This document shows, one piece after another, positions 627 to 13,122 of a DNA stretch of 64,000 bases; position 1 is the stretch's first letter, and the number at the start of each line of letters is the position of its first letter. Location: contig OY759316.1 of NCBI GenBank assembly GCA_963662275.1, positions 3,200,001 to 3,264,000 on the forward strand, written 5' to 3'. The translations under genes and the position numbers were made by a program. The DNA is from Candidatus Cloacimonadales bacterium. GTDB taxonomy: Bacteria; Cloacimonadota; Cloacimonadia; Cloacimonadales; DAONDQ01. Below the pieces are notes generated by a model. The model was not told where the DNA came from. It saw nothing but the letters and a program-made list of their open reading frames with translations, and did no database searches.

Positions 627-682
627 GCAATTTGAACTCCAAATACTTTAATTTCACGGCACAGAATTCTAAAGAGGTAAAT

Positions 683-1057
683 GTGATATATGGTATAGGT
701 ACTGATTTGATTGAAGTTGAACGGGTAAAAAAGCAAGTGGAAAGTGATAACGGTTTTAAAGAACGTGTCTTCACAGAGGCAGAGATTGCGTACTGTGACA
801 GTAAACATCATAGATATCAGCATTATGCAGGAAGATTTGCAGCCAAAGAAGCTTTTATGAAGGCTTTGGGGACTGGATGGCAGGGTGGAGTTTCATTCCA
901 GGATATTGAAATAATCACTACTCCCAATGGAAAACCTGAATTAAAACTGCATGGAAAGACTGCAGAAATAACCGAAGGCAAGTTCATTCAATCTATGTTT
1001 GTTTCTCTTTCCCATTTATCCAGTTTTGCGATGGCAACAGTTGTATTGGAACAGTAA
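683..1057 (+). CDS. acpS: Holo-[acyl-carrier-protein] synthase
   Basis: GIGTDLIE, GRFAAKEAFMKALGTG and SLSH motifs. GTG start at 683 follows a GAGGT RBS. Confidence 0.95.
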   Translation: MIYGIGTDLIEVERVKKQVESDNGFKERVFTEAEIAYCDSKHHRYQHYAGRFAAKEAFMKALGTGWQGGVSFQDIEIITTPNGKPELKLHGKTAEITEGKFIQSMFVSLSHLSSFAMATVVLEQ

Positions 1058-2413: not shown

Positions 2414-3604
2414 TTACTTCAATATCCCTAATTCCTTTCCAATCTTCACAAAAGAGCTAATAGCACGATCAAGATGAAATAGGGAATGTGCTGCTGAAAG
2501 CTGAACACGGATGCGTGCTTTCCCCACAGGAACAACTGGATATGTGAATCCAATCACATATATTCCCTCTTCAAGAAGGCGATTCGCCATTTCCACGGCA
2601 AGATTCTCATCATGAATCATAACCGGTACAATCGCAGTATCACTTGGAATAATGTCAAATCCGGCTTCTATCATACCTTTTCGGAAGTAATTAGCGTTTG
2701 TGATGAGATGATTTCTAAAATTAGTTGTTTCAATAAGCATATCAATCACTTTCATGACAGCACCAACTATGGGAGGTGCAATCGTATTGGAAAATATATA
2801 CGGTCTGGAACGTTGTCGTAAATATTCAATGACATCCCTGCTACTGGATATGCAACCACCGGAAGACCCGCCAAGTGCTTTACCAAAAGTAGTTGTGATA
2901 ATATCTACACGTCCTTCAACACCACAATATTCAACAGTACCTCTTCCGGTATCACCGATATAACCCGTTGCATGGGAATCATCCACCAGGACAAGAGAAT
3001 CATACTTTTCTGCAAGATCACAGATTGTTTGAAGATTAGCAATATCTCCATCCATGGAGAAGACACCATCAGTGACGATTAGGCGATACTTCATGTCTTT
3101 CGCCTTAGTTAGGATATCCTCTAATTCTGTCATATCAGCATGTGTATAACGAAATCGCTGCGCTTTGCATAAACGAACACCATCAATGATGGAAGCATGA
3201 TTCAAAGCATCTGAGATGATCGCACAATCTTCATCAAGTAGAGGTTCGAACACTCCACCATTGGCATCAAAGCAGGAAGAATAGAGAATTGTGTCTTCCA
3301 TACCCAGAAACTTGGATACTTTCTTTTCCAGTTGTTTATGTATTTCCTGTGTTCCACAGATGAAACGTACCGAAGCCAAGCCAAATCCCCACTCATCGAG
3401 TGTCTTCTTTACAGCCTTAATGACTTCCGGATGATTTGCCAAGCCCAGGTAATTATTTGCACAGAAATTGATAACTTTTTCACCATCGACCAAGGCAATC
3501 TCTGCCCCTTGAGGTGTACCGAGGATACGTTCAGTTTTGAACATACCTGACGTATTTATTTGATCCAACTGTTTCCTGATATCTCCATGGAATCTTTTAG
3601 ACAT
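2414..3604 (-). CDS. kbl: Glycine C-acetyltransferase (2-amino-3-ketobutyrate CoA ligase)
   Basis: NFCANNYLGL, SVRFICGTQ, DGVFSMDG, DDSHATG, PLP lysine in TTFGKALGG, ARIRVQLSAAH. Confidence 0.93.
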   Translation of the reverse strand: MSKRFHGDIRKQLDQINTSGMFKTERILGTPQGAEIALVDGEKVINFCANNYLGLANHPEVIKAVKKTLDEWGFGLASVRFICGTQEIHKQLEKKVSKFLGMEDTILYSSCFDANGGVFEPLLDEDCAIISDALNHASIIDGVRLCKAQRFRYTHADMTELEDILTKAKDMKYRLIVTDGVFSMDGDIANLQTICDLAEKYDSLVLVDDSHATGYIGDTGRGTVEYCGVEGRVDIITTTFGKALGGSSGGCISSSRDVIEYLRQRSRPYIFSNTIAPPIVGAVMKVIDMLIETTNFRNHLITNANYFRKGMIEAGFDIIPSDTAIVPVMIHDENLAVEMANRLLEEGIYVIGFTYPVVPVGKARIRVQLSAAHSLFHLDRAISSFVKIGKELGILK

Positions 3605-3623
3605 GATAACCTCTTTTTTCTTT

Positions 3624-3777
3624 GTAGAGTAGGATTCCGATCCTACTGAATACTAAACTCATCGTGGAGTAGGATTCCGATCCTACTGAATACTAAACTT
3701 CAGCGTGTTACACTCAGACTCAATTAACTTCTTCACTAATAGTCAACTGTTCAGTAGGATCGGAATCCTACTCCACG
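3624..3777. repeat. REP variant cluster (TCCG loop): two direct copies and one inverted copy, REPIN-like
   Basis: GT(A/G)GAGTAGGATTCCGATCCTACTGAA at about 3624 and 3664; inverted copy at 3751-3777. Confidence 0.9.
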
Positions 3778-3850
3778 TTATTGAGACGTCTCAGCGTTTA
3801 CAGTAATTCTGTCAATAAAAACAAGCGCCTTTTCCATCTATGGAAAAAGC

Positions 3851-5711
3851 GAGACTGTTCAAAATTAACCTCCATTTTACGCAGCCTTATTGGTAGTGAC
3901 AGAGAAAAAGTGGTCTAAGTGCGACCAATCCACATTTTCTTGACATATGCGGGAGATATTTAAACTTGCTAAAAGTGATTCCTGACGCATGATTGGTTGA
4001 CCTTTATCGACCAGTTCTTTGAACCAAAGCGAAAACACAAGGTTGCGGGTGGTTTCTTCAGATTTTAGTCCAAATCTACCGGATGTCACCTTCTTGATTT
4101 TGCGGTTCCAGCGTTCAGAGACATTGGAAGTCAAACCTTTGCTGAGGTGTCTCCAATCACTAATGATATTGCTTTTGATGTATTCGGCGGCGGTTGGGGG
4201 AGTAATAGCTGTCAGGCTTGCGATACCCTTTTTCCTTCCGCCCGCCGTTTCTCTTCGGAAAGCTTTCATAATCCTCTTCTTAAAGAACTTGTCCCTGTCT
4301 TCAGGGAGATGACATTGACTGATTCTTTTGAAGAGATTTCGTATCTTATGGAACTTACAGAGTTGGTAATGGACTTTTGGAAACACTGTTTTTCTTGCAA
4401 CTGCTAACGATTTACTGCCATCACTGACAATCAGGGTTGGATCTTTCCTGTAGAGCTGTCTGAAGGTTCTGAAACATGCTTCGAATGATTCTTTCTTTGT
4501 GTCAGGATACAACTCACAAAACAGAGGGATGTGAGTCACAAAATCAACAATACTGATGACATAGTACGGAATACCTTTGATCTTCACATATTTCTCATCA
4601 ATGCTGATCTTTCCGCTCCACTTACCGATTGAGTTCAGAATCAGGCTCTGCAGGTCAGCGATTTCATGCCAGAGATTTGAGACTGTAGCTTTACAGGTGT
4701 TGAGCAGCAAAGCTATCGTCTCGAAGTTCATACCGCTTCCAACCAGGTAATGTACCAGCAGACACAGGTTCTTGCGTTCCAGACTATGGAACGGCTTTGC
4801 ATCGGCGGTTCTATGGGATGTATTGCCTTTAGCAGTCTTCATTTGTTCCAGGAGTCTGTCACAGATAACAGGTGTATTCTGCTGACCGGCAAGCAGTTTC
4901 AGCAGATGTACAGCATCACCGCCTACTGTCTTTTTCAGAAGAAGCTTCTGAGCTTGCTTAACTACAGACAGAGAATTGACCTGAGAAGCATATTTGCAGA
5001 AAGTGGTATAGGACATTTTAAAATCATGATGGCTGATGAACTCCTGATACATGACATTTAAAGGTAAAAGCAGGTTATTGATAACAAAATTCTCGATCTG
5101 AGGAATACACTCCAGCAGGTCAACTTTCCGGCTTAAATATGCCAGGATATCATGACCATGCTGCTCAAACTCTTGCCAGAAATTATGTACATTCCTGCGG
5201 TCTGCGTAGTTAAACAGATCAGCTATTTGCTGAAGTGTAAGGAGGTTGTCTCCGCCTATTCCTACTAATAAGCGTAGAAACGCTATTAAGAACTTGTGGT
5301 TTGATGTTGTCTCAGGCAAAGTGAATGAAAATGGTACGTTAATACTTACATGGTATTGGTTACTTTCATGACTAACACTTACCGCTTCTTGAATTGGAGT
5401 GTTTTTTTGTCATAATATCCTCCCTTTTGTTACCAGGTAACAAATGCCATTGAAGCTATAGCAAAAAACTTGTAAAGAACTATTTTATATGATTTTAACT
5501 ACACATTTAGTCAGAAACGGCTTCGAAACATTACTTATAATCGCGTGTTTTTCAATTTTAGTCAAAAAGCTTAACTTGTGATTTGGTGTCCTTAGCAGAG
5601 CTTATCTGTCAATTCTGGAAGGTATGTTAAATTATGACCGTTTCGACCACTTTTTTCAACTTGCTACTTTCTAACTTATTGAATATTATGAATAACTTCA
5701 TGAACAGTCTC
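3851..5711 (-). mobile_element. Insertion sequence, 1861 bp, with 11-bp TIRs and 8-bp target-site duplication
   Basis: GAGACTGTTCA (3851-3861) and TGAACAGTCTC (5701-5711). GAAAAAGC flanks both ends (3843-3850, 5712-5719). Confidence 0.92.
3877..5319 (-). CDS. DDE transposase (Mutator/IS256-like CxxH signature; first Asp in IS6-like context); true start may be ATG 5413 via a frameshift
   Basis: SIDEKYVKIKG, IVSDG, QLCKFH and NVSERWN motifs, inside a TIR-bounded element. Confidence 0.88.
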   Translation of the reverse strand: MPETTSNHKFLIAFLRLLVGIGGDNLLTLQQIADLFNYADRRNVHNFWQEFEQHGHDILAYLSRKVDLLECIPQIENFVINNLLLPLNVMYQEFISHHDFKMSYTTFCKYASQVNSLSVVKQAQKLLLKKTVGGDAVHLLKLLAGQQNTPVICDRLLEQMKTAKGNTSHRTADAKPFHSLERKNLCLLVHYLVGSGMNFETIALLLNTCKATVSNLWHEIADLQSLILNSIGKWSGKISIDEKYVKIKGIPYYVISIVDFVTHIPLFCELYPDTKKESFEACFRTFRQLYRKDPTLIVSDGSKSLAVARKTVFPKVHYQLCKFHKIRNLFKRISQCHLPEDRDKFFKKRIMKAFRRETAGGRKKGIASLTAITPPTAAEYIKSNIISDWRHLSKGLTSNVSERWNRKIKKVTSGRFGLKSEETTRNLVFSLWFKELVDKGQPIMRQESLLASLNISRICQENVDWSHLDHFFSVTTNKAA

Positions 5712-5757
5712 GAAAAAGCGCTTTAAATGTATTACTGAAGCTTATTCAGTGTAAATA

Positions 5758-7005
5758 TTATGAACTATACATTGCCATGATTTCATTCTTGGTTTTCCCA
5801 AGAATACCATATTTCTTTCCAACTTTAATGAATGCTGCCAGTGCTTTTTCGAGGTGATGCATCTCATGCGCTGCAGAGATCTGGGTACGAATTCTGGCTT
5901 TACCTTGTGGTACAACAGGGAAAAAGAAGCCTATTGCATAGACGCCTTCAGCATAGAGATCAGTTGCAAAGTCCTGTGACAGTTTCGAATCAAATAACAT
6001 CACGGGAACAATGGGAGTATCACCGGGTTGAATGATGAATCCGGCTTCAATGAGACCTTTTCTCCACCAGTTGGCACTGGCTTCCAACTTGTCCCTGCGT
6101 TCAGTTGTCTTGGAAAGGATATCCAAAACCCGAATTACACCGGCAACCACAGGTGGGGCAATAGTGTTTGAGAACAAATATGGACGTGCTTTCTGACGAC
6201 ACATCTCAACCAGTTCCTTCCGTCCGGATACGCATCCGCCGGAAGCACCGCCGAGACCTTTACCGAATGTGGTTGTGATGATGTCTATCTTGCCCATCAC
6301 GCCGCAAAGCTCATGCGTTCCTCTTCCGGTCTTACCGATAAAACCTGATGAATGTGAATCATCAACCAGCAGCATGGCATCATATTTTTCACATAATGCT
6401 ACCATTTCAGCAAGTTTTGCTGTATCGCCATCCATAGAGAAAACGCCATCTGTGATAACAAGCTTGTTGCGTTTGTCAGAATGGAGTTGAAGCTTCTCTT
6501 CCAAATGACCCATATCAGAATGCTTGAATGTATCCTGTACTGCCTTGCATAAGCGAATTCCATCGATCAGGGAAGCATGAACCAGACGATCTGATATCAT
6601 CACATCCTCTTCTGATAATATCGCTTCAAACACACCTGCATTTGCGTCCATACAGGAAGGGAAAAGAATAGTATCTTCAGTACCGAGGAATTCCGTCACT
6701 TTCCTTTCCAGCTCCTTATGTATATCCTGGGTTCCGCAAATGAAACGGACAGAGGACATACCGTACCCGCGGGCATCTAAACCTTCATGAGCAGCTTTGA
6801 CTACTTCAGGATGGCTGGATAATCCAAGATAATTATTAGCACATACATTTATGACTTTCTTCAGAGGGGCACCCGGAGGGAATTCAACTTCAATCTCTGC
6901 ATCCTGTACTGAATGAATGTAACGTTCAACCTTCAAGATACCTGCGTTCTTCAAGGCATCCACTTGTGCAGTATAAGTCGCTCTGACTTTATCGCTATAT
7001 GCCAT
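5758..7005 (-). CDS. Second alpha-oxoamine synthase (KBL-like, PLP-dependent class II)
   Basis: CANNYLGL, SVRFICGTQ, DDSHSSG, TTFGKGLGG. Starts 9 bp after the ACP gene stop. Confidence 0.9.
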   Translation of the reverse strand: MAYSDKVRATYTAQVDALKNAGILKVERYIHSVQDAEIEVEFPPGAPLKKVINVCANNYLGLSSHPEVVKAAHEGLDARGYGMSSVRFICGTQDIHKELERKVTEFLGTEDTILFPSCMDANAGVFEAILSEEDVMISDRLVHASLIDGIRLCKAVQDTFKHSDMGHLEEKLQLHSDKRNKLVITDGVFSMDGDTAKLAEMVALCEKYDAMLLVDDSHSSGFIGKTGRGTHELCGVMGKIDIITTTFGKGLGGASGGCVSGRKELVEMCRQKARPYLFSNTIAPPVVAGVIRVLDILSKTTERRDKLEASANWWRKGLIEAGFIIQPGDTPIVPVMLFDSKLSQDFATDLYAEGVYAIGFFFPVVPQGKARIRTQISAAHEMHHLEKALAAFIKVGKKYGILGKTKNEIMAMYSS

Positions 7006-7014
7006 TTCTCCTCC

Positions 7015-7263
7015 TTATTTAGCCAGGAATTCCTGAACGAGTTTCACAATTTTAGTTACACTATCAAAAGCTTCAGGGCTGGCTTTCTCATCAGGGATAG
7101 AAATTTTGTATTTGTTTTCCAGGAAGCGTTTCAGGGATACCATCGAGAAAGAATCTACTATACCACCTGAAATGAGTGGCGTATCAAAGCTTATTTCTTC
7201 ATCCGGATCTTCACAATATTCTTTGATCACATAGGCAAGAACGATGTCACGAATTTCTTCCAT
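7015..7263 (-). CDS. Acyl/aminoacyl carrier protein
   Basis: 82 aa, acidic, with phosphopantetheine motif GGIVDSFSMV. AAGGAG RBS. Confidence 0.9.
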   Translation of the reverse strand: MEEIRDIVLAYVIKEYCEDPDEEISFDTPLISGGIVDSFSMVSLKRFLENKYKISIPDEKASPEAFDSVTKIVKLVQEFLAK

Positions 7264-7429
7264 AATTAGTTAACTCCTTTATTGTTTTGGTTTTAATCTT
7301 TTGTGGCATAAGATTCCAATCTTATGATAATTAATTCCTTCATTTATTTTGTACTTTTTAATCGTCTTCAATGTTGATGTATGACCAAACTATCCCCCTT
7401 GATAAGGGGGGTAGGGGGGTCAACCTGTA

Positions 7430-9133
7430 TTAATCATCTTCAAGTGTAGATATATCACCGATTTCCTCACCCCATTCCTGGGCTTTCAGGACACGGCGCA
7501 TGATCTTACCACTGCGTGTTTTGGGCAAATTAGGCACAAATTCAATCTCTTGAGGCATGGCAAGAGGTGATAACTTCCTGCGAATGAAGTTCATGATATC
7601 CAAATCCATTTCATCACTTGCTTCGAAACCAGGTTTCAGACAGACAAAAGCCTTTACCACTTCCATATTGACGAAGTCAGGTTTGGAAACGACTGCTGAT
7701 TCAGCCACTGCGGGATGTTCCAGCAATGCGGACTCCACTTCGAATGGACTGACCAAATGACCGCCTGTATTGATGATATCATCATCACGACCCACAAACC
7801 AATAGTAGCCGTCCATATCAATGTAAGCTCTATCACCCGGGAGATACCAGCCGTTTTTGAACTTCGCCTGGTAGGTGGCTTCATTATTCCAATAGGTACG
7901 CATCATGGCAGGCCAGCCTGGTTTGAAACCGATCAAGCCGATCTTACCTGTTTCCGTGATCGGTTCAAATGTCTCGGTATCCACAACACAAGCTGTGATT
8001 CCCGGGAATGGTTTACCCATGGAACCTGGCTTTATCTTCATATCGGGTAAATTAGTAATCATGATGGAACCGGTCTCTGTCTGCCAATAGGAATCATGGA
8101 ATTTTAAACCAAATACCTTATCAGACCAGACTACAGCTTCTGAATTCAATGGTTCACCTACACTGGCTAAATGGCGAAGAGAGGAAAGATCGAAAGTCTT
8201 AATAATGTCGTCACCGGCTTTCATCAGGGAACGAATTGCTGTTGGAGCTGAATACCAGACAGTAATCTTATGCTTTTGAATGAAGCTATACCACGCATCG
8301 GCTGAAAAGCCTATATCATTCACGCATTGTGTCACACCCATTGACCAGGGTCCGATAATACCATAGGAAATACCGGTTACCCAGCCCGGATCGGCGGTGC
8401 ACCAATAAATATCATCATCCTTCAGATCCAATACCCATTTCGTAGTGAGATACTGGGAAATGAGTGAATAATGCACATGCTTCACACCTTTCGGCATGCC
8501 TGTTGTACCTGATGTATAATGTAAAAGAGAGGGAGATTCAGCATGTGTAGGATAAGATTCAAACACATCCACACGTTCTACCTCTTCCATATTGAAGGCG
8601 ACCTCACGTTCCTGCAGAGGGCTTTTCTGATTGTCATCAACAATGATGATATGTCGTAATTCAGGAAGCTTGTCGATGATCTTGCGAAGCTTGCCAACAT
8701 GCTTCTTCTGGGTGAAGACAGCACATGTACCTGCATTCTCCAAACGAACCAATAAAGATTCATCACCGAAGGCAGAGAATAATGGCTGCGCAGCACAGCC
8801 TGCCTTGAGAACTGAAACAACACCGATGTACAGTTCAGGGATTCTATCCATGAAAAGACAAATACGTTCTTCGGGCTTGATTCCTAATTTCTGGATAAAG
8901 GTCGCAACCGTATTACTGAGTTGGCGGATATCATTGTAGGTATACTGTTTGGCTTTCCCTCCAAGTCCTTCCCACTTCAGGGCAAGCTTATCGCCCTTTC
9001 CCTGTTTACAGATTCGATCTGTGCAATACCAGCCGATATTAATGACATTACCAGGCTTGTACTCGAGTTCTTTTTCGGCAATTTCCCAGGAAAAGTTTTT
9101 GAGTCTTTCGTCGTATGATCCAATATTTGACAT
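7430..9133 (-). CDS. Acetate--CoA ligase-like AMP-forming enzyme (AcsA type)
   Basis: YTSGTTGMPKG, WCTADPGWVTG, SVGEP, YWQTETG, PKTRSGKIMRR. Confidence 0.92.
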   Translation of the reverse strand: MSNIGSYDERLKNFSWEIAEKELEYKPGNVINIGWYCTDRICKQGKGDKLALKWEGLGGKAKQYTYNDIRQLSNTVATFIQKLGIKPEERICLFMDRIPELYIGVVSVLKAGCAAQPLFSAFGDESLLVRLENAGTCAVFTQKKHVGKLRKIIDKLPELRHIIIVDDNQKSPLQEREVAFNMEEVERVDVFESYPTHAESPSLLHYTSGTTGMPKGVKHVHYSLISQYLTTKWVLDLKDDDIYWCTADPGWVTGISYGIIGPWSMGVTQCVNDIGFSADAWYSFIQKHKITVWYSAPTAIRSLMKAGDDIIKTFDLSSLRHLASVGEPLNSEAVVWSDKVFGLKFHDSYWQTETGSIMITNLPDMKIKPGSMGKPFPGITACVVDTETFEPITETGKIGLIGFKPGWPAMMRTYWNNEATYQAKFKNGWYLPGDRAYIDMDGYYWFVGRDDDIINTGGHLVSPFEVESALLEHPAVAESAVVSKPDFVNMEVVKAFVCLKPGFEASDEMDLDIMNFIRRKLSPLAMPQEIEFVPNLPKTRSGKIMRRVLKAQEWGEEIGDISTLEDD

Positions 9134-9500: not shown

Positions 9501-11051
9501 TCACTTCACCAACATCATCTTCCTAACTTCCTGCTTCCCTGATGAAGAAATACGACAGAAATACAAGCTGGAAGCTACTGCATTACCATTGTCATCTTTC
9601 CCATTCCAAGTCACAGAATGCTGTCCAGCTATTTGGTTTTCATTGATAAGAGTCTTAACATGCTGACCTTTGATGTTATAGACCGATAGTTCTGTTAGCC
9701 CTTTTACAGGCAGGCTGTAGGAGATAGTTGTGGTGGGATTGAAGGGGTTTGGGTAGTTGGAAATAGAAACCAAGGATGATGAGGGAATGACGGTATCATC
9801 CGTTGTTGGTGTATTATTCTGAGCCAAATATGGATAGCCACCATTCAAATTGGCGTTGATTGACCACATGTCATCGGTTCCATTTGCGGTTTCACTAATA
9901 AAGTCCCATCCCGCATTCAGATATGTGCTGATGTCCTGCATTTGGGTTGTGGTGCAGCCAGTACCCCCGGCACTTGTGGATTGGCCACTGGTTTCGGTGT
10001 TCCAGAAGCTGCTAATAACTGATTCATTGCTACTATACCCCCCAAGTCCGCCAGTGCTGACTAGCCCAGTAACATTACCCGTGGCGTAGCAGTTGCTTAT
10101 GATACCTGTGTTACCCCCCACCAGACCACCGGTGTTTTGATAGCCACTTACACTACCGGTGGCATAGCAGTTGTCTATCGTGCCGTAGTTAGAACCCACC
10201 AGACCGCCGGCAGAGTTGTGTGCGTAAGGGCATGTAACACTACCTGTTGCGTAGCAGTTGCTGATTGTGCTCCCTTCGCTTAACCCCACTAGACCGCCAG
10301 TTTCACCAGAATGACCAGTAACACTGCAACTGGAGTTGCAGTTGTTGATTGTACTGTAAGTGTTATCCCCTGACAGACCACCGGTGTAAACATAGCCACT
10401 TACGCTACCGATGGTGTAGCAGTTGCTTATAGTACCACTATAGTTCTGCCCCACCAGTCCGCCAGTGTAATTTGTACCGGTCACTGTTCCTGTGGCGTAG
10501 CAGTTGTCTATGGATCCGTGGTTATTACCCACCAGTCCGCCGGTGCGCGTGTCTCTACCAATAATACTACCAGTGACATGGCAGTTGTTTATGGCACTAC
10601 CTTGGTTATCCCCCACCAGACCGCCGGTGTAATTATCGCCATGCACTTCCAAATTGTTCAATCCAAGATTAGCTAAGATGGCCTCATTTGTATTTCCAAA
10701 CATGCCTTGTAAGCTTATATATGGTCTATTAATGAATAAATTTAAAATTATATGTCCCTGACCATCGTAGTTGCCGGTAAAATTGACGTAATCAGTGCTG
10801 GAGTTATAATAACCAATCGGATTCCATCCTTGTCCCCAATTCCAATTCCGAGTATCGTTGGCATCAATATCGGCAGTCTGGACAAACCAACTACCCCAAC
10901 TGCTGCTGTTCTCACTGATCCATTGAAGATTATCCAAACTGGCTACATGATATGGGCTGGCTTCGGTTCCTTCACCAGCAGGCTGAACCGCCACCGCACT
11001 TAAAGTACATACACAGAAAATAAAAATCAAGGCCAAGCAAACTGCCTTCAA
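9501..11051 (-). CDS. Secreted GLUG-repeat protein with C-terminal FlgD-Ig/T9SS-type sorting domain
   Basis: Signal peptide; repeated NCYATGSVxG...TGGLVGxN; tail NYPNPFNP...RKMMLVK. Confidence 0.88.
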   Translation of the reverse strand: MKAVCLALIFIFCVCTLSAVAVQPAGEGTEASPYHVASLDNLQWISENSSSWGSWFVQTADIDANDTRNWNWGQGWNPIGYYNSSTDYVNFTGNYDGQGHIILNLFINRPYISLQGMFGNTNEAILANLGLNNLEVHGDNYTGGLVGDNQGSAINNCHVTGSIIGRDTRTGGLVGNNHGSIDNCYATGTVTGTNYTGGLVGQNYSGTISNCYTIGSVSGYVYTGGLSGDNTYSTINNCNSSCSVTGHSGETGGLVGLSEGSTISNCYATGSVTCPYAHNSAGGLVGSNYGTIDNCYATGSVSGYQNTGGLVGGNTGIISNCYATGNVTGLVSTGGLGGYSSNESVISSFWNTETSGQSTSAGGTGCTTTQMQDISTYLNAGWDFISETANGTDDMWSINANLNGGYPYLAQNNTPTTDDTVIPSSSLVSISNYPNPFNPTTTISYSLPVKGLTELSVYNIKGQHVKTLINENQIAGQHSVTWNGKDDNGNAVASSLYFCRISSSGKQEVRKMMLVK

Positions 11052-11176
11052 TATTCCTCCTAATGACTATGTTGAAAATTATCTTCCTACCAAATTCCTT
11101 TGTTGTCAAGCCTTTTCCTCTTCAGCCGTGAGTTCACTCCAACAATTCAAAAGCATACTGTACATGTGCAGATAGA

Positions 11177-11572
11177 GTCATGGATTCTCTCATCCGCATG
11201 AATGACAATAATGACGACAATCAAGTCCAGTATGGACGATAGATATTAACGACGGATTTCAATCCGCGATACGTGACCCATAGCGACCACTAGCCCGGTA
11301 CGGACGGCGATGAGTATGAGTGCATATAGTCCGGTACGTGATAGTGTAGTGTATCGTCGCGATTGGACTTTGATCTCTTGTGGTCAGTTGCCACCGGATT
11401 GAAATCCAGTGTTATTATCTTCTTTCCCTACGGGAATTGTCTTCATTTCACTCATATCATCGCATTGAAATCCAGTATTAGTATATGTCGTCAGTACCTG
11501 ACTAATCCGTAAGCAATCAATTTCACAGGATATCAATCCAGTGTTATTATCTTTCATCCCGTTGGGATTTAG
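11177..11572. repeat. Cluster of degenerate palindromic REP-like elements, a family distinct from the RAYT REPs
   Basis: Recurrent GGATTTCAATCC/GGATTGAAATCC; AATCCAGTGTTATTATC twice; small hairpins GTCCAGTATGGAC, TTCCCTACGGGAA, ATCCCGTTGGGAT. Confidence 0.65.
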
Positions 11573-11591
11573 AACAGCTCTAATTAATCAA

Positions 11592-12701
11592 TCAGTGAGC
11601 AGCCCTGCAAAGGCGCAAGCCTATGCTGTAGTCAGTGGTAGTCGCTACGTTGTTATAGCGGAAGGTATAATAACAGAAGCTTGCCCAGCCACCCCAATAG
11701 CCACCACGTCCTACACGGGTCAGCCCTGTTGTGGCTCCGTGCGGGTCTAACTGATCACCGCTGGGATAAGTACCCCTGATGTCCCAAACCCATTCATGGA
11801 CATTACCGCTCATATCGAATAGACCAAGTTCATTAGAAGCCAGATCGCCCACCGTATGCGTAGTATAATTTGCCTGTCCCCAATTCGTCCAAATCCATCC
11901 AACTTCATCGATATTGTCACTCCCGCTAAACTGGTATGCGTTGGGCTGATGTACCTGCAGTCCACCTCTCGCAGCGAACCACCATTCCATCTCAGTAGGC
12001 AGGCGATAACCGTTTGCATCCCAATTACAGGAGACATTCGTGTGGTTATTTATATCGGTATTCCAGCCCGTAGGCCAGCTTGGAGGATAAGAACCGAATG
12101 TTGAATAGGAATAACATGCTGTAAGACCTTCATTGATACTTCTTCTATTACAGTATTCAATGGCATTATACCACGAAACATTATAGACGGGATAATTGCT
12201 GCCGACTCCATAGCCGGTCGCAGGATTGATTCCCATCACAGCCTCATAACCGGACTGTGTAAGCTCATATTTATCTATATAGAAATCTGAGACGGTGACA
12301 TTAGATGTACCATTATTGAACATACCCCCGATTACATGAACCAGGCTATCATCTTCAGCGCAAACCTTAACTCTAAACTGGCTACCGATAATATTGTATG
12401 TCTCTGCTCCGATATTCCAGACGATATTCTTTCTATTCCCGGGTACGATTCCGGATCCGATATCTCCACTGAGGTTAGCACGAACCGGAATCAGAGTAAA
12501 AGAAACACCTGCATCAACCGAGACAATGACTGAGATCGTACAAGTGTCGGATTCAGCATCTGCGAGGTCATACGAAATATCTACAAGCATACTGTTGTCT
12601 GTACGCTGGATCATAGTTGCATTGATAACTGTAGGAGTTGAAGCTGCAAAGACAAATACTGTGAATAACAATAAACTGAATGAAATGATCATGTATTTCA
12701 T
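11592..12701 (-). CDS. Secreted FGE-sulfatase (SUMF1/C-type-lectin fold) domain protein with N-terminal Ig-like domain
   Basis: FYIDKYELTQ, PVYNVSW, GYRLPTEMEW, NELGLFDMSGNVHEW, RGGYW, IGLRL. ATG 12701 follows AAAGGAG. Confidence 0.9.
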   Translation of the reverse strand: MKYMIISFSLLLFTVFVFAASTPTVINATMIQRTDNSMLVDISYDLADAESDTCTISVIVSVDAGVSFTLIPVRANLSGDIGSGIVPGNRKNIVWNIGAETYNIIGSQFRVKVCAEDDSLVHVIGGMFNNGTSNVTVSDFYIDKYELTQSGYEAVMGINPATGYGVGSNYPVYNVSWYNAIEYCNRRSINEGLTACYSYSTFGSYPPSWPTGWNTDINNHTNVSCNWDANGYRLPTEMEWWFAARGGLQVHQPNAYQFSGSDNIDEVGWIWTNWGQANYTTHTVGDLASNELGLFDMSGNVHEWVWDIRGTYPSGDQLDPHGATTGLTRVGRGGYWGGWASFCYYTFRYNNVATTTDYSIGLRLCRAAH

Positions 12702-12717
12702 ATTATCTCCTTTCCTG

Positions 12718-13122
12718 CTACTTAAGTAAGACCAGTTTTTTGGTTTCATTTGCAGAAGGTGTGATCAGCTTATAAAAGTAGATACCGCTGCAGCAGTCTT
12801 TACCATCCCAGTTCAGGCTATGCACTCCTGCTGAAATTGGAAAGGATTTCACTGTCTGTCCCAGGATATTGAAGATAGTTACAGTCCCGATTTCTCCCAT
12901 CTTTATGGAAACGCTGATATTGACACTATGGCTATTATCAGTGTGGAAAGGATTAGGAAAGGCATTGTTCAGATGAGAAATTGCTATTGCAGGAATGATA
13001 TCATCATCAACAGCAACATCAGTGTTGTTTAGAATGGAGTTTTCTGTTGAAATCACAAATCCTGTCAGGGCAAAAATGCTTACTGTGAAGCAAAGCATAG
13101 CGATAAGAATGATTGTTTTCAT
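12718..13122 (-). CDS. Small secreted protein made almost entirely of a T9SS/FlgD-Ig-type sorting domain
   Basis: Signal peptide, a short linker, then AFPNPF...IFNILGQ.VK...WDG...SGIYFYKL...KKLVLLK. Confidence 0.82.
   Translation of the reverse strand: MKTIILIAMLCFTVSIFALTGFVISTENSILNNTDVAVDDDIIPAIAISHLNNAFPNPFHTDNSHSVNISVSIKMGEIGTVTIFNILGQTVKSFPISAGVHSLNWDGKDCCSGIYFYKLITPSANETKKLVLLK

Follow-up and report, generated by a model that had tools for sequence, protein, structure and literature searches.

A three-gene module in a Cloacimonadales genome

We analyzed a 64,000-nucleotide stretch (hereafter, the window) of the genome of a Candidatus Cloacimonadales bacterium (contig OY759316.1, positions 3,200,001 to 3,264,000). 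Here, three co-oriented genes encode a short, AMP-forming acetate ligase of the AcsA type, a stand-alone acyl carrier protein (ACP), and an alpha-oxoamine synthase of the Kbl (glycine C-acetyltransferase) type (Table 1). Only 9 bp separate the ACP stop codon from the start of the synthase. Beyond an insertion sequence (IS) lies a second, canonical kbl, and acpS is found 1357 bp from that gene. An earlier reading of this DNA, made without database searches (the sequence-only reading), had described this layout, including the 9-bp gap, the second kbl beyond the IS, and an acpS about 1.4 kb further on, and all of these elements are where it placed them. That reading proposed that acetate or another short acid is loaded onto the carrier and condensed with glycine. 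On the evidence below, we think it somewhat probable that (acpS)-ligase-ACP-Kbl' is a conserved module in which a dedicated carrier would replace coenzyme A (CoA) as the acetyl carrier, in chemistry linked to threonine. It is apparently a previously undescribed module of uncultured anaerobes; full-text searches of the main articles in the literature found no description of this gene combination.

Table 1. The module and associated features, with positions in the window
Feature	Position	Strand	Size	Remarks
AcsA-type (Bacillus-type, short) AMP-forming acetate ligase	7430-9133	(-)	567 aa	proposed acetate:holo-ACP ligase
Stand-alone carrier protein (ACP)	7015-7263	(-)	82 aa	invariant Ser38 in GGIVDSFSMVSL
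Kbl-type alpha-oxoamine synthase paralog	5758-7005	(-)	415 aa	proposed acetyl-ACP-dependent glycine C-acetyltransferase
IS element between the two kbl paralogs	3850-5712	(-)		transposase open reading frame 3877-5319
Second kbl, canonical type	2414-3604	(-)		NF005394 624.5 bits, TIGR01822 619.7 bits
acpS, holo-ACP synthase	632-1057	(+)		sole PF01648 gene of the genome

Conservation of the module

One alternative is that both enzymes are ordinary and CoA-dependent. The ligase would then be an acetyl-CoA synthetase, the synthase would be another glycine C-acetyltransferase in the Tdh-Kbl threonine pathway, and the ACP would have a separate job: it might be the donor for some unrelated acyl transfer, or a subunit with a regulatory or structural part to play. 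We consider this unlikely, and the distribution of the genes is one argument against it. In a sample of 41 Cloacimonadales genomes, the window's own included, the ACP (68-100% identity), the ligase (73-100%), and a trio-type synthase (54-58% identical to the canonical paralog) are all found in the same 12 genomes and in none of the other 29, a perfect three-gene co-occurrence that ordinary enzymes would not lead one to expect. The ligase evidently travels with the ACP and the synthase rather than serving as a general acetyl-CoA synthetase (Acs), since 27 of the 29 trio-less genomes have no Acs homolog at E <= 1e-60; the other two carry a canonical Acs of 37% identity. The window's genome has no Acs-like gene besides the trio ligase. 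Among the loci of the 11 relatives, the ligase directly precedes the ACP in eight, tdh lies within the locus in eight, and acpS in six. Three genomes of one genus have the ligase about 4 kb from the ACP, behind lipoprotein genes.

The sequence-only reading had made much depend on conservation of the trio in other genomes, and the arrangement indeed extends well beyond the order. A carrier-alignment search of a one-genome-per-species collection gave at least 585 matching stretches. We examined the best 80, which come from Bacteroidota, Delongbacteria, Zixibacteria, Aminicenantes/Acidobacteriota, Elusimicrobiota, KSB1, Ignavibacteriales, Bipolaricaulota, and others. Where a locus has 2300 bp or more of sequence on the upstream side of the ACP (66 loci), a ligase is found there in 62, in 61 of them within 600 bp. 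Where 1500 bp or more lie on the downstream side (73 loci), a trio-type synthase follows within 300 bp in 72. These fractions, like those from metagenomes below, come from best-scoring, non-random samples of 80 loci and describe the close relatives of the carrier, which limits the support they lend to our interpretation. Median gaps are 69 bp between ligase and ACP and 18 bp between ACP and synthase. The 9-18 bp spacing and the fixed gene order across more than eight phyla again argue against two ordinary enzymes beside an unconnected carrier. Four loci have no upstream ligase and one has its ligase 5.3 kb off; three of these genomes hold a trio-type ligase elsewhere or further up the contig.

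The wider neighborhoods have a recurring set of genes. In the 44 loci with full flanks, we found acpS in 32 (in other lineages directly upstream of the ligase), a second kbl-like gene in 28, the acetate uptake transporter gene satP in 14 (the protein matches NF038013, and the gene directly follows the synthase), a Pat-type acetyltransferase gene in five, and tdh in four. Across all 80 loci, a Pat-type gene (894 aa, an ACD-like, ADP-forming acyl-CoA synthetase-like part plus a C-terminal GNAT domain) is near the module in nine, including L082, L097, and L063; in the window's genome, an 897-aa frame of this kind lies elsewhere (G000:C1:3455309-3455719). One suggestion of the sequence-only reading does not survive this comparison. 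The catabolic kbl is not kept apart from the module, as the 28 of 44 neighborhoods with a second kbl attest, and in the window the two are split only by the IS. The gene acpS is not dedicated to the module: it is the sole phosphopantetheinyl transferase gene in this 4.38-Mb single-contig genome.

Metagenomes and natural fusions tie the ligase more closely to the carrier. A search for longer carrier-containing proteins gave 16 matches, among which P0287 (659 aa, 6 member sequences from 5 contigs) and P0288 (664 aa) are clean in-frame fusions of a full-length ligase and an ACP, and P0286 and P0282 are partial forms of the same fusion. Compared from end to end, P0287 and P0288 share 75% identity, and the junction is kept in both; the carrier part is 55% identical to the window ACP. 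The existence of such fusions links ligase and carrier, and their persistence through 25% sequence divergence is difficult to reconcile with an ACP that has nothing to do with the ligase. P0283, P0284, and P0280 were discarded as candidates, as they look like frameshifted or chimeric gene calls. A scan of metagenome contigs with P0288 as query gave 80 loci, of which 56 have a ligase followed by an ACP; the synthase is also present in 35 of the 37 with room for it. None of those 56 ligase and ACP pairs is fused, so the fusion must be rare. Another 18 metagenome ligase homologs, at most 57% identical to the window ligase, have no carrier downstream, many of them with 2-4 kb of room. In a FastTree tree, all 18 fall outside a clade of 79 carrier-linked or fused ligases, in which the sole other rows (L187 and L192) come from rearranged or truncated loci. 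This separate grouping of ACP-less homologs also runs counter to the ordinary-enzyme explanation. Altogether, the trio arrangement is far beyond chance, and the module is a real, strongly conserved functional unit.

The ligase

The ligase has AMP-binding and AMP-binding_C domains and exceeds the cut-off of NF003313, the model for short acetate--CoA ligases of the Bacillus/archaeal type (754.5 bits vs 729). It falls below the model for long Acs, TIGR02188 (493.5 vs 724.95), and far under the cut-offs of long-chain ligase models. Its best match in the PDB is an acetyl-CoA synthetase (9g79_B, 550 bits). The motifs WVTG (residues 251-254) and YWQTETG (349-355), noted in the sequence-only reading, are present, as are the other motifs it quoted. 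Residues V252, T253, V325, and W350 align with V310, T311, V386, and W414 of Salmonella enterica Acs (2p2f, with the numbering confirmed at K609), which we take to line the acetate pocket. All four pocket residues are identical, and on this basis the ligase is predicted to be acetate-type, in agreement with what the sequence-only reading had proposed. The A10 lysine, K543 in SGKIMRR, is invariant among trio ligases.

The pocket also bears on a second alternative, in which the module does depend on the carrier but its substrates differ. The acid could be propionate or a similarly small one, the amino acid could be one different from glycine, or both. The product would then be a distinct amino-ketone, for instance a signal, a precursor of pyrazines, or a building block of the aminopropanol type, and would not feed the threonine-glycine node. 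Acs-type pockets tolerate propionate, which leaves some room for this idea. The identity of the four pocket residues to those of Acs weighs against it, and we regard it as quite unlikely; the synthase, discussed below, offers evidence in both directions.

Other residues bear on the thiol that accepts the acetyl group. R518 is invariant and aligns with S. enterica Acs R584, which presumably contacts CoA, and this residue counts in favor of an ordinary CoA-dependent ligase. The fusions to the carrier and the co-occurrence pattern suggest holo-ACP as the acceptor instead. Carrier-linked ligases differ from carrier-less homologs at 17 positions. Among these are K144, H145, and R150, which form a basic cluster where the loop corresponds to the R191/R194 region of Acs, and position 528, which is Q in carrier-linked ligases and R or K in carrier-less homologs. 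A leucine at the position of S. enterica Acs R526 was set aside as a marker: it is invariant in trio ligases yet common in other short Acs-like representatives and so is not diagnostic. One further homolog, P0127 (949 aa), has an intein with a LAGLIDADG domain interrupting its AMP-binding domain.

The carrier protein

The motif GGIVDSF occupies residues 33-39 of the ACP, and D37-S38-F39, the DSx motif of the phosphopantetheine site, is invariant in sets of 13 and 30 sequences. The protein is well conserved, with 68-90% identity in the 11 same-order genomes and 68-85% in the best 80 matches from other phyla. Its best NCBIfam matches are specialized carriers (ACP_for_OlsHI, AmcB, and DltC), all under cut-off. 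We set aside a link to OlsH/OlsI, for which the model match is sub-threshold (60.6 vs a cut-off of 130) and the text of the OlsH paper never mentions "acyl carrier protein".

A related carrier in the same genome raises another possibility. A cassette at G000:C1:2581314-2586300 (locus L125, 8315-13305) comprises a 76-aa carrier, two genes for DltB-like membrane-bound O-acyltransferases (MBOATs), and two membrane proteins of no known family; it recurs in 31 of 232 genomes of the phylum, mostly without the trio. That such a carrier serves an MBOAT cassette could be taken to mean that the trio ACP, too, has a job apart from the neighboring enzymes. It could also be that the trio ligase loads carriers with acetate chiefly for MBOATs and that the Kbl paralog is a side consumer. 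The MBOAT-type carrier is a 38%-identical paralog that precedes the MBOAT genes with no ligase of its own nearby, and among the 41 genomes it is found only in those with the trio (6 of 12 vs 0 of 29). At the scale of the phylum, the MBOAT-type carrier occurs in 31 genomes, and in 22 of them no trio-type carrier is seen, which largely refutes this explanation and makes it very improbable. The idea that the MBOAT cassette depends on the trio ligase thus held in 41 genomes and failed in 232.

The synthase

The trio synthase, with the motifs CANNYLGL and RFICGT, is above both Kbl cut-offs (561.7 bits vs 493 for TIGR01822; 559.2 vs 460 for NF005394), scores 448 bits against solved Kbl structures, and is 57% identical to the second kbl product. 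It misses the models for serine palmitoyltransferase (SPT; 306.8 vs 640, 282.3 vs 500, and 228.6 vs 670). In Kbl of Cupriavidus necator, the pyridoxal phosphate (PLP) lysine is K246, and S187 and the cavity residues N52, V81, H138, H215, L274, F275, and R370 are also named (PMC9814548). The equivalents in the trio synthase are K249, S190, N57, V86, H143, H218, L277, F278, and R373, aligned to 7bxp_A, a chain whose numbering is that of the paper plus 4. The PLP lysine, S190, and the seven cavity residues are invariant across 33 trio synthases. The TIGR01822 score and the agreement of every mapped active-site residue bear out the earlier assignment of the synthase as Kbl-type.

Trio synthases nevertheless stand apart as a group. 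In a quick LG+G4 tree, their 62 rows make up a single clade (SH-aLRT 100) that lies nested within Kbl-like rows; in this tree, trio rows were labeled by at least 70% identity, a label that coincides with a position right after the carrier. At 31 positions, trio synthases are at least 90% conserved for residues that are rare in Kbl. In one of these changes, the Asn that immediately precedes the PLP-stacking His is replaced by V142 (NHAS to VHAS); in others, R140, P116, and M119 stand where Kbl has E, S, and F, and trio synthases have a C-terminal extension relative to Kbl. Trio synthases and Kbl are alike in net charge and pI, and a complex prediction with two synthase chains and the ACP scored 0.13 against a mark of 0.32, which counts neither way. 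Subfamily-specific changes adjoining the active site are a further point against ordinary CoA-dependent enzymes. Taken with the changes in the ligase, they may reflect a remodeled thiol-acceptor side.

The same changes can be read in favor of other substrates, as trio synthases show invariant replacements next to the PLP-stacking His and within the SCFDAN loop. That the seven cavity residues with which Kbl holds glycine or threonine are all retained points the other way. So do the neighborhoods we surveyed, in which no conserved reductase, transaminase, or other tailoring enzyme lies next to or downstream of the module, and the genes that recur are tdh, kbl, acpS, and an acetate transporter. 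One chemical argument for a pyrazine-type product is that 2-amino-3-oxobutanoate readily yields aminoacetone and pyrazines when thiolysis is limiting (PMC9814548).

The genome has a third alpha-oxoamine synthase (G000:C1:2701283-2702401; locus L003, 1405-2592), which does not adjoin a carrier gene. It is closest to the SPT model of the CFB group (587.9 bits vs a cut-off of 640) and may be a sphingolipid- or sulfonolipid-type enzyme.

Proposed chemistry

From the conservation, co-occurrence, fusions, and retained residues of the module we infer the following steps. AcpS would prime the small dedicated carrier. The ligase would then catalyze acetate + ATP + holo-ACP <-> acetyl-S-ACP + AMP + PPi, as its pocket residues and the natural fusions suggest. 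The Kbl paralog would catalyze acetyl-S-ACP + glycine <-> 2-amino-3-oxobutanoate + holo-ACP, a step suggested by gene order, co-occurrence, and the retained Kbl residues. An L-threonine 3-dehydrogenase (Tdh) of the short-chain dehydrogenase/reductase (SDR) type would join 2-amino-3-oxobutanoate to L-threonine. The net reaction would be threonine + NAD+ + AMP + PPi <-> glycine + acetate + NADH + ATP, run on a separate thioester pool. Because the acetate pocket is retained in the ligase, and the Kbl PLP lysine, S190, and cavity residues in the synthase, acetate activation together with a glycine/2-amino-3-oxobutanoate reaction is the most likely pair of activities.

SDR-type Tdh is present in 40 of the 41 Cloacimonadales genomes and scores 412 bits against solved L-threonine 3-dehydrogenases. 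Of the 41 genomes, 29 have a canonical kbl ortholog (62-87% identity). It is missing from two of the genomes with the trio (G015 and G037), and the trio synthase is their only enzyme at least 50% identical to Kbl. The sequence-only reading had looked for an absence of thrABC, and this was not borne out: all 12 genomes with the trio have a match to the thrC family (above the curated cut-off in 10), as do 21 of 29 trio-less genomes. The module is thus unsupported as a stand-in for thrABC, and a replacement of threonine synthesis is rejected. A replacement of Pta-Ack is rejected as well, as ackA is above cut-off in 37 of 41 genomes, including all 12 with the trio.

In which direction would the pathway run? 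We consider acetate activation and threonine breakdown to have roughly even odds. A gene for an acetate transporter directly after the synthase and the nearby Pat-type genes fit acetate activation, and AMP-forming ligases usually run in that direction. Linkage to tdh fits threonine breakdown, and so do two genomes where no Kbl-type enzyme besides the trio synthase was found. It is a direction also favored by the fermentative, syntrophic lifestyle of the phyla that carry the module, and by the dependence of Kbl activity on how much CoA is available, without which 2-amino-3-oxobutanoate breaks down to aminoacetone and pyrazines (PMC9814548). One version of the breakdown reading, which we find rather unlikely, is a branch of energy metabolism conducted on the carrier, in which threonine would be split to glycine and acetyl-S-ACP, and the ligase, reversed, would make ATP from AMP and PPi. 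The thioester would stay outside the CoA pool, and thiolysis of 2-amino-3-oxobutanoate would be independent of the level of free CoA. If true, this would be the first substrate-level phosphorylation route running on an acyl carrier protein.

Several observations weigh against a carrier-dependent pathway of either direction. Both enzymes are over the curated cut-offs of CoA-dependent families and retain all known catalytic and substrate residues, so that by sequence alone they could be ordinary. The ACP just misses the gathering score of PF00550 (20.2 bits vs 20.8). The module would be redundant in either direction, since the window's genome also has ackA, a canonical kbl, and thrC, and across the order no complementary loss (ackA in 37 of 41 genomes, thrC-family matches in all 12 with the trio) points to its role. 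There are also loci in which the trio is incomplete. Two genomes (L095 and L111), of unestablished completeness, keep acpS-ACP-synthase with no trio-type ligase genome-wide and only a 38% canonical Acs, which also counts in favor of the ordinary-enzyme alternative. Conversely, two metagenome loci (L155 and L173) keep the ligase and ACP, and the synthase is degraded or absent.

Relation to known systems

The closest architectural parallel is the AasR-AcpR-SPT system of Caulobacter crescentus and other Rhodobacteria. There, the ligase acylates only a specialized small ACP and the synthase prefers acyl-ACP over acyl-CoA (PMC9386255). In both cases, an ANL-family ligase, a small ACP, and an alpha-oxoamine synthase co-occur and cluster, and the likeness to a ligase-ACP-SPT layout that the sequence-only reading had pointed out holds at this level of architecture. 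The products differ: in AasR-AcpR-SPT, a long-chain fatty acid and serine give a sphingoid base. The module here has an acetate pocket that keeps Trp350, a Kbl-type synthase, and no linked lipid genes. As the synthase fails the SPT models, the module appears to share the logic of AasR-AcpR-SPT without belonging to it.

The individual enzymes also have well-known relatives. The synthase resembles that of the Tdh-Kbl pathway (TIGR01822; structures 1FC4 and 7BXP), in that it passes the Kbl cut-off, keeps the PLP lysine and cavity, and is accompanied by an SDR-type Tdh in the genome. In contrast, Kbl takes free CoA or acetyl-CoA, whereas the trio synthase follows a carrier gene in 72 of 73 loci (from the best 80) and forms a separate clade with invariant changes beside the active site. 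The ligase likewise resembles AcsA of the Bacillus subtilis type (NF003313; PDB 9g79), its best family and PDB match, with the acetate pocket and catalytic lysine kept and a Pat-type acetyltransferase as an occasional neighbor (9 of 80 loci). Unlike AcsA, the ligases of the module form their own ACP-linked clade, are fused to the carrier in some lineages, and have changes in the R191/R194 loop and at position 528. By score and residues, the module's enzymes are members of the Kbl and short-AcsA families, and it is the defining use of CoA that is in doubt.

There is precedent for putting acetate on a protein. CitC and MadH, the ligases for citrate lyase and malonate decarboxylase, spend ATP to acetylate a thiol on a protein, taking free acetate as the donor. 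Their enzyme family is unrelated and the prosthetic group is another one, and the acetylated carrier in those systems is used for acyl exchange, not for a PLP-dependent condensation. For the reverse reaction, PMC4992975 describes Acs1 of Syntrophus aciditrophicus, an AMP-forming enzyme that runs in reverse in a syntrophic anaerobe and makes ATP from a thioester, AMP, and PPi. This is a precedent for the reaction that a catabolic reading of the module needs, although the substrate described there is acetyl-CoA and no carrier protein takes part (PMC4992975).

Routine annotation labels the trio as acetate--CoA ligase, acyl carrier protein, and glycine C-acetyltransferase. Because of this, metabolic reconstructions of Cloacimonadota, Bacteroidales, Zixibacteria, Aminicenantes, Delongbacteria, Elusimicrobiota, and KSB1 take these genes for ordinary acetate activation and for the breakdown of threonine. 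Should the acetyl group in fact be held on a private carrier, that ordinary reading is wrong in hundreds of species from anaerobic digesters and sediments. A two-carbon case from central metabolism would join the short list of ACP-dependent alpha-oxoamine synthases, and acyl-ACP synthetases would gain an acetate-specific member. The module is widely distributed and experimentally tractable, with three small soluble proteins plus AcpS.

Neighboring elements

The IS element between the two kbl paralogs is bounded by perfect 12-nt terminal inverted repeats (3850-3861 and 5701-5712), and its 480-aa transposase matches MULE, Transposase_mut, and IS256-like models. In a genome of the same genus (G001), only 135 bp separate the two kbl genes, so the window's IS must have entered this conserved kbl pair recently. 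An Rfam scan of 11 loci, the window's own included, gave a single tRNA and no riboswitch. Upstream of the module are two proteins sorted by the type IX secretion system, a GLUG-repeat protein (9501-11051) and a small Por_Secre_tail protein (12718-13122), and an FGE-sulfatase/GldK-like protein (11592-12749); these neighbors within 9501-13122 are not conserved alongside the module.

Between the canonical kbl and the IS (3619-3777), a palindromic repeat of about 40 nt with the core GTAGGATTCCGATCCTAC is present in four copies, two direct and two inverted. A fifth copy of the repeat is at 1592-1611, beside a gene on the (+) strand (1643-2317) for a repetitive extragenic palindrome (REP)-associated tyrosine transposase (RAYT), which scores 76.7 bits against NF047646, just below the cut-off of 80. 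Together, the repeats and this gene look like a REP/RAYT system.

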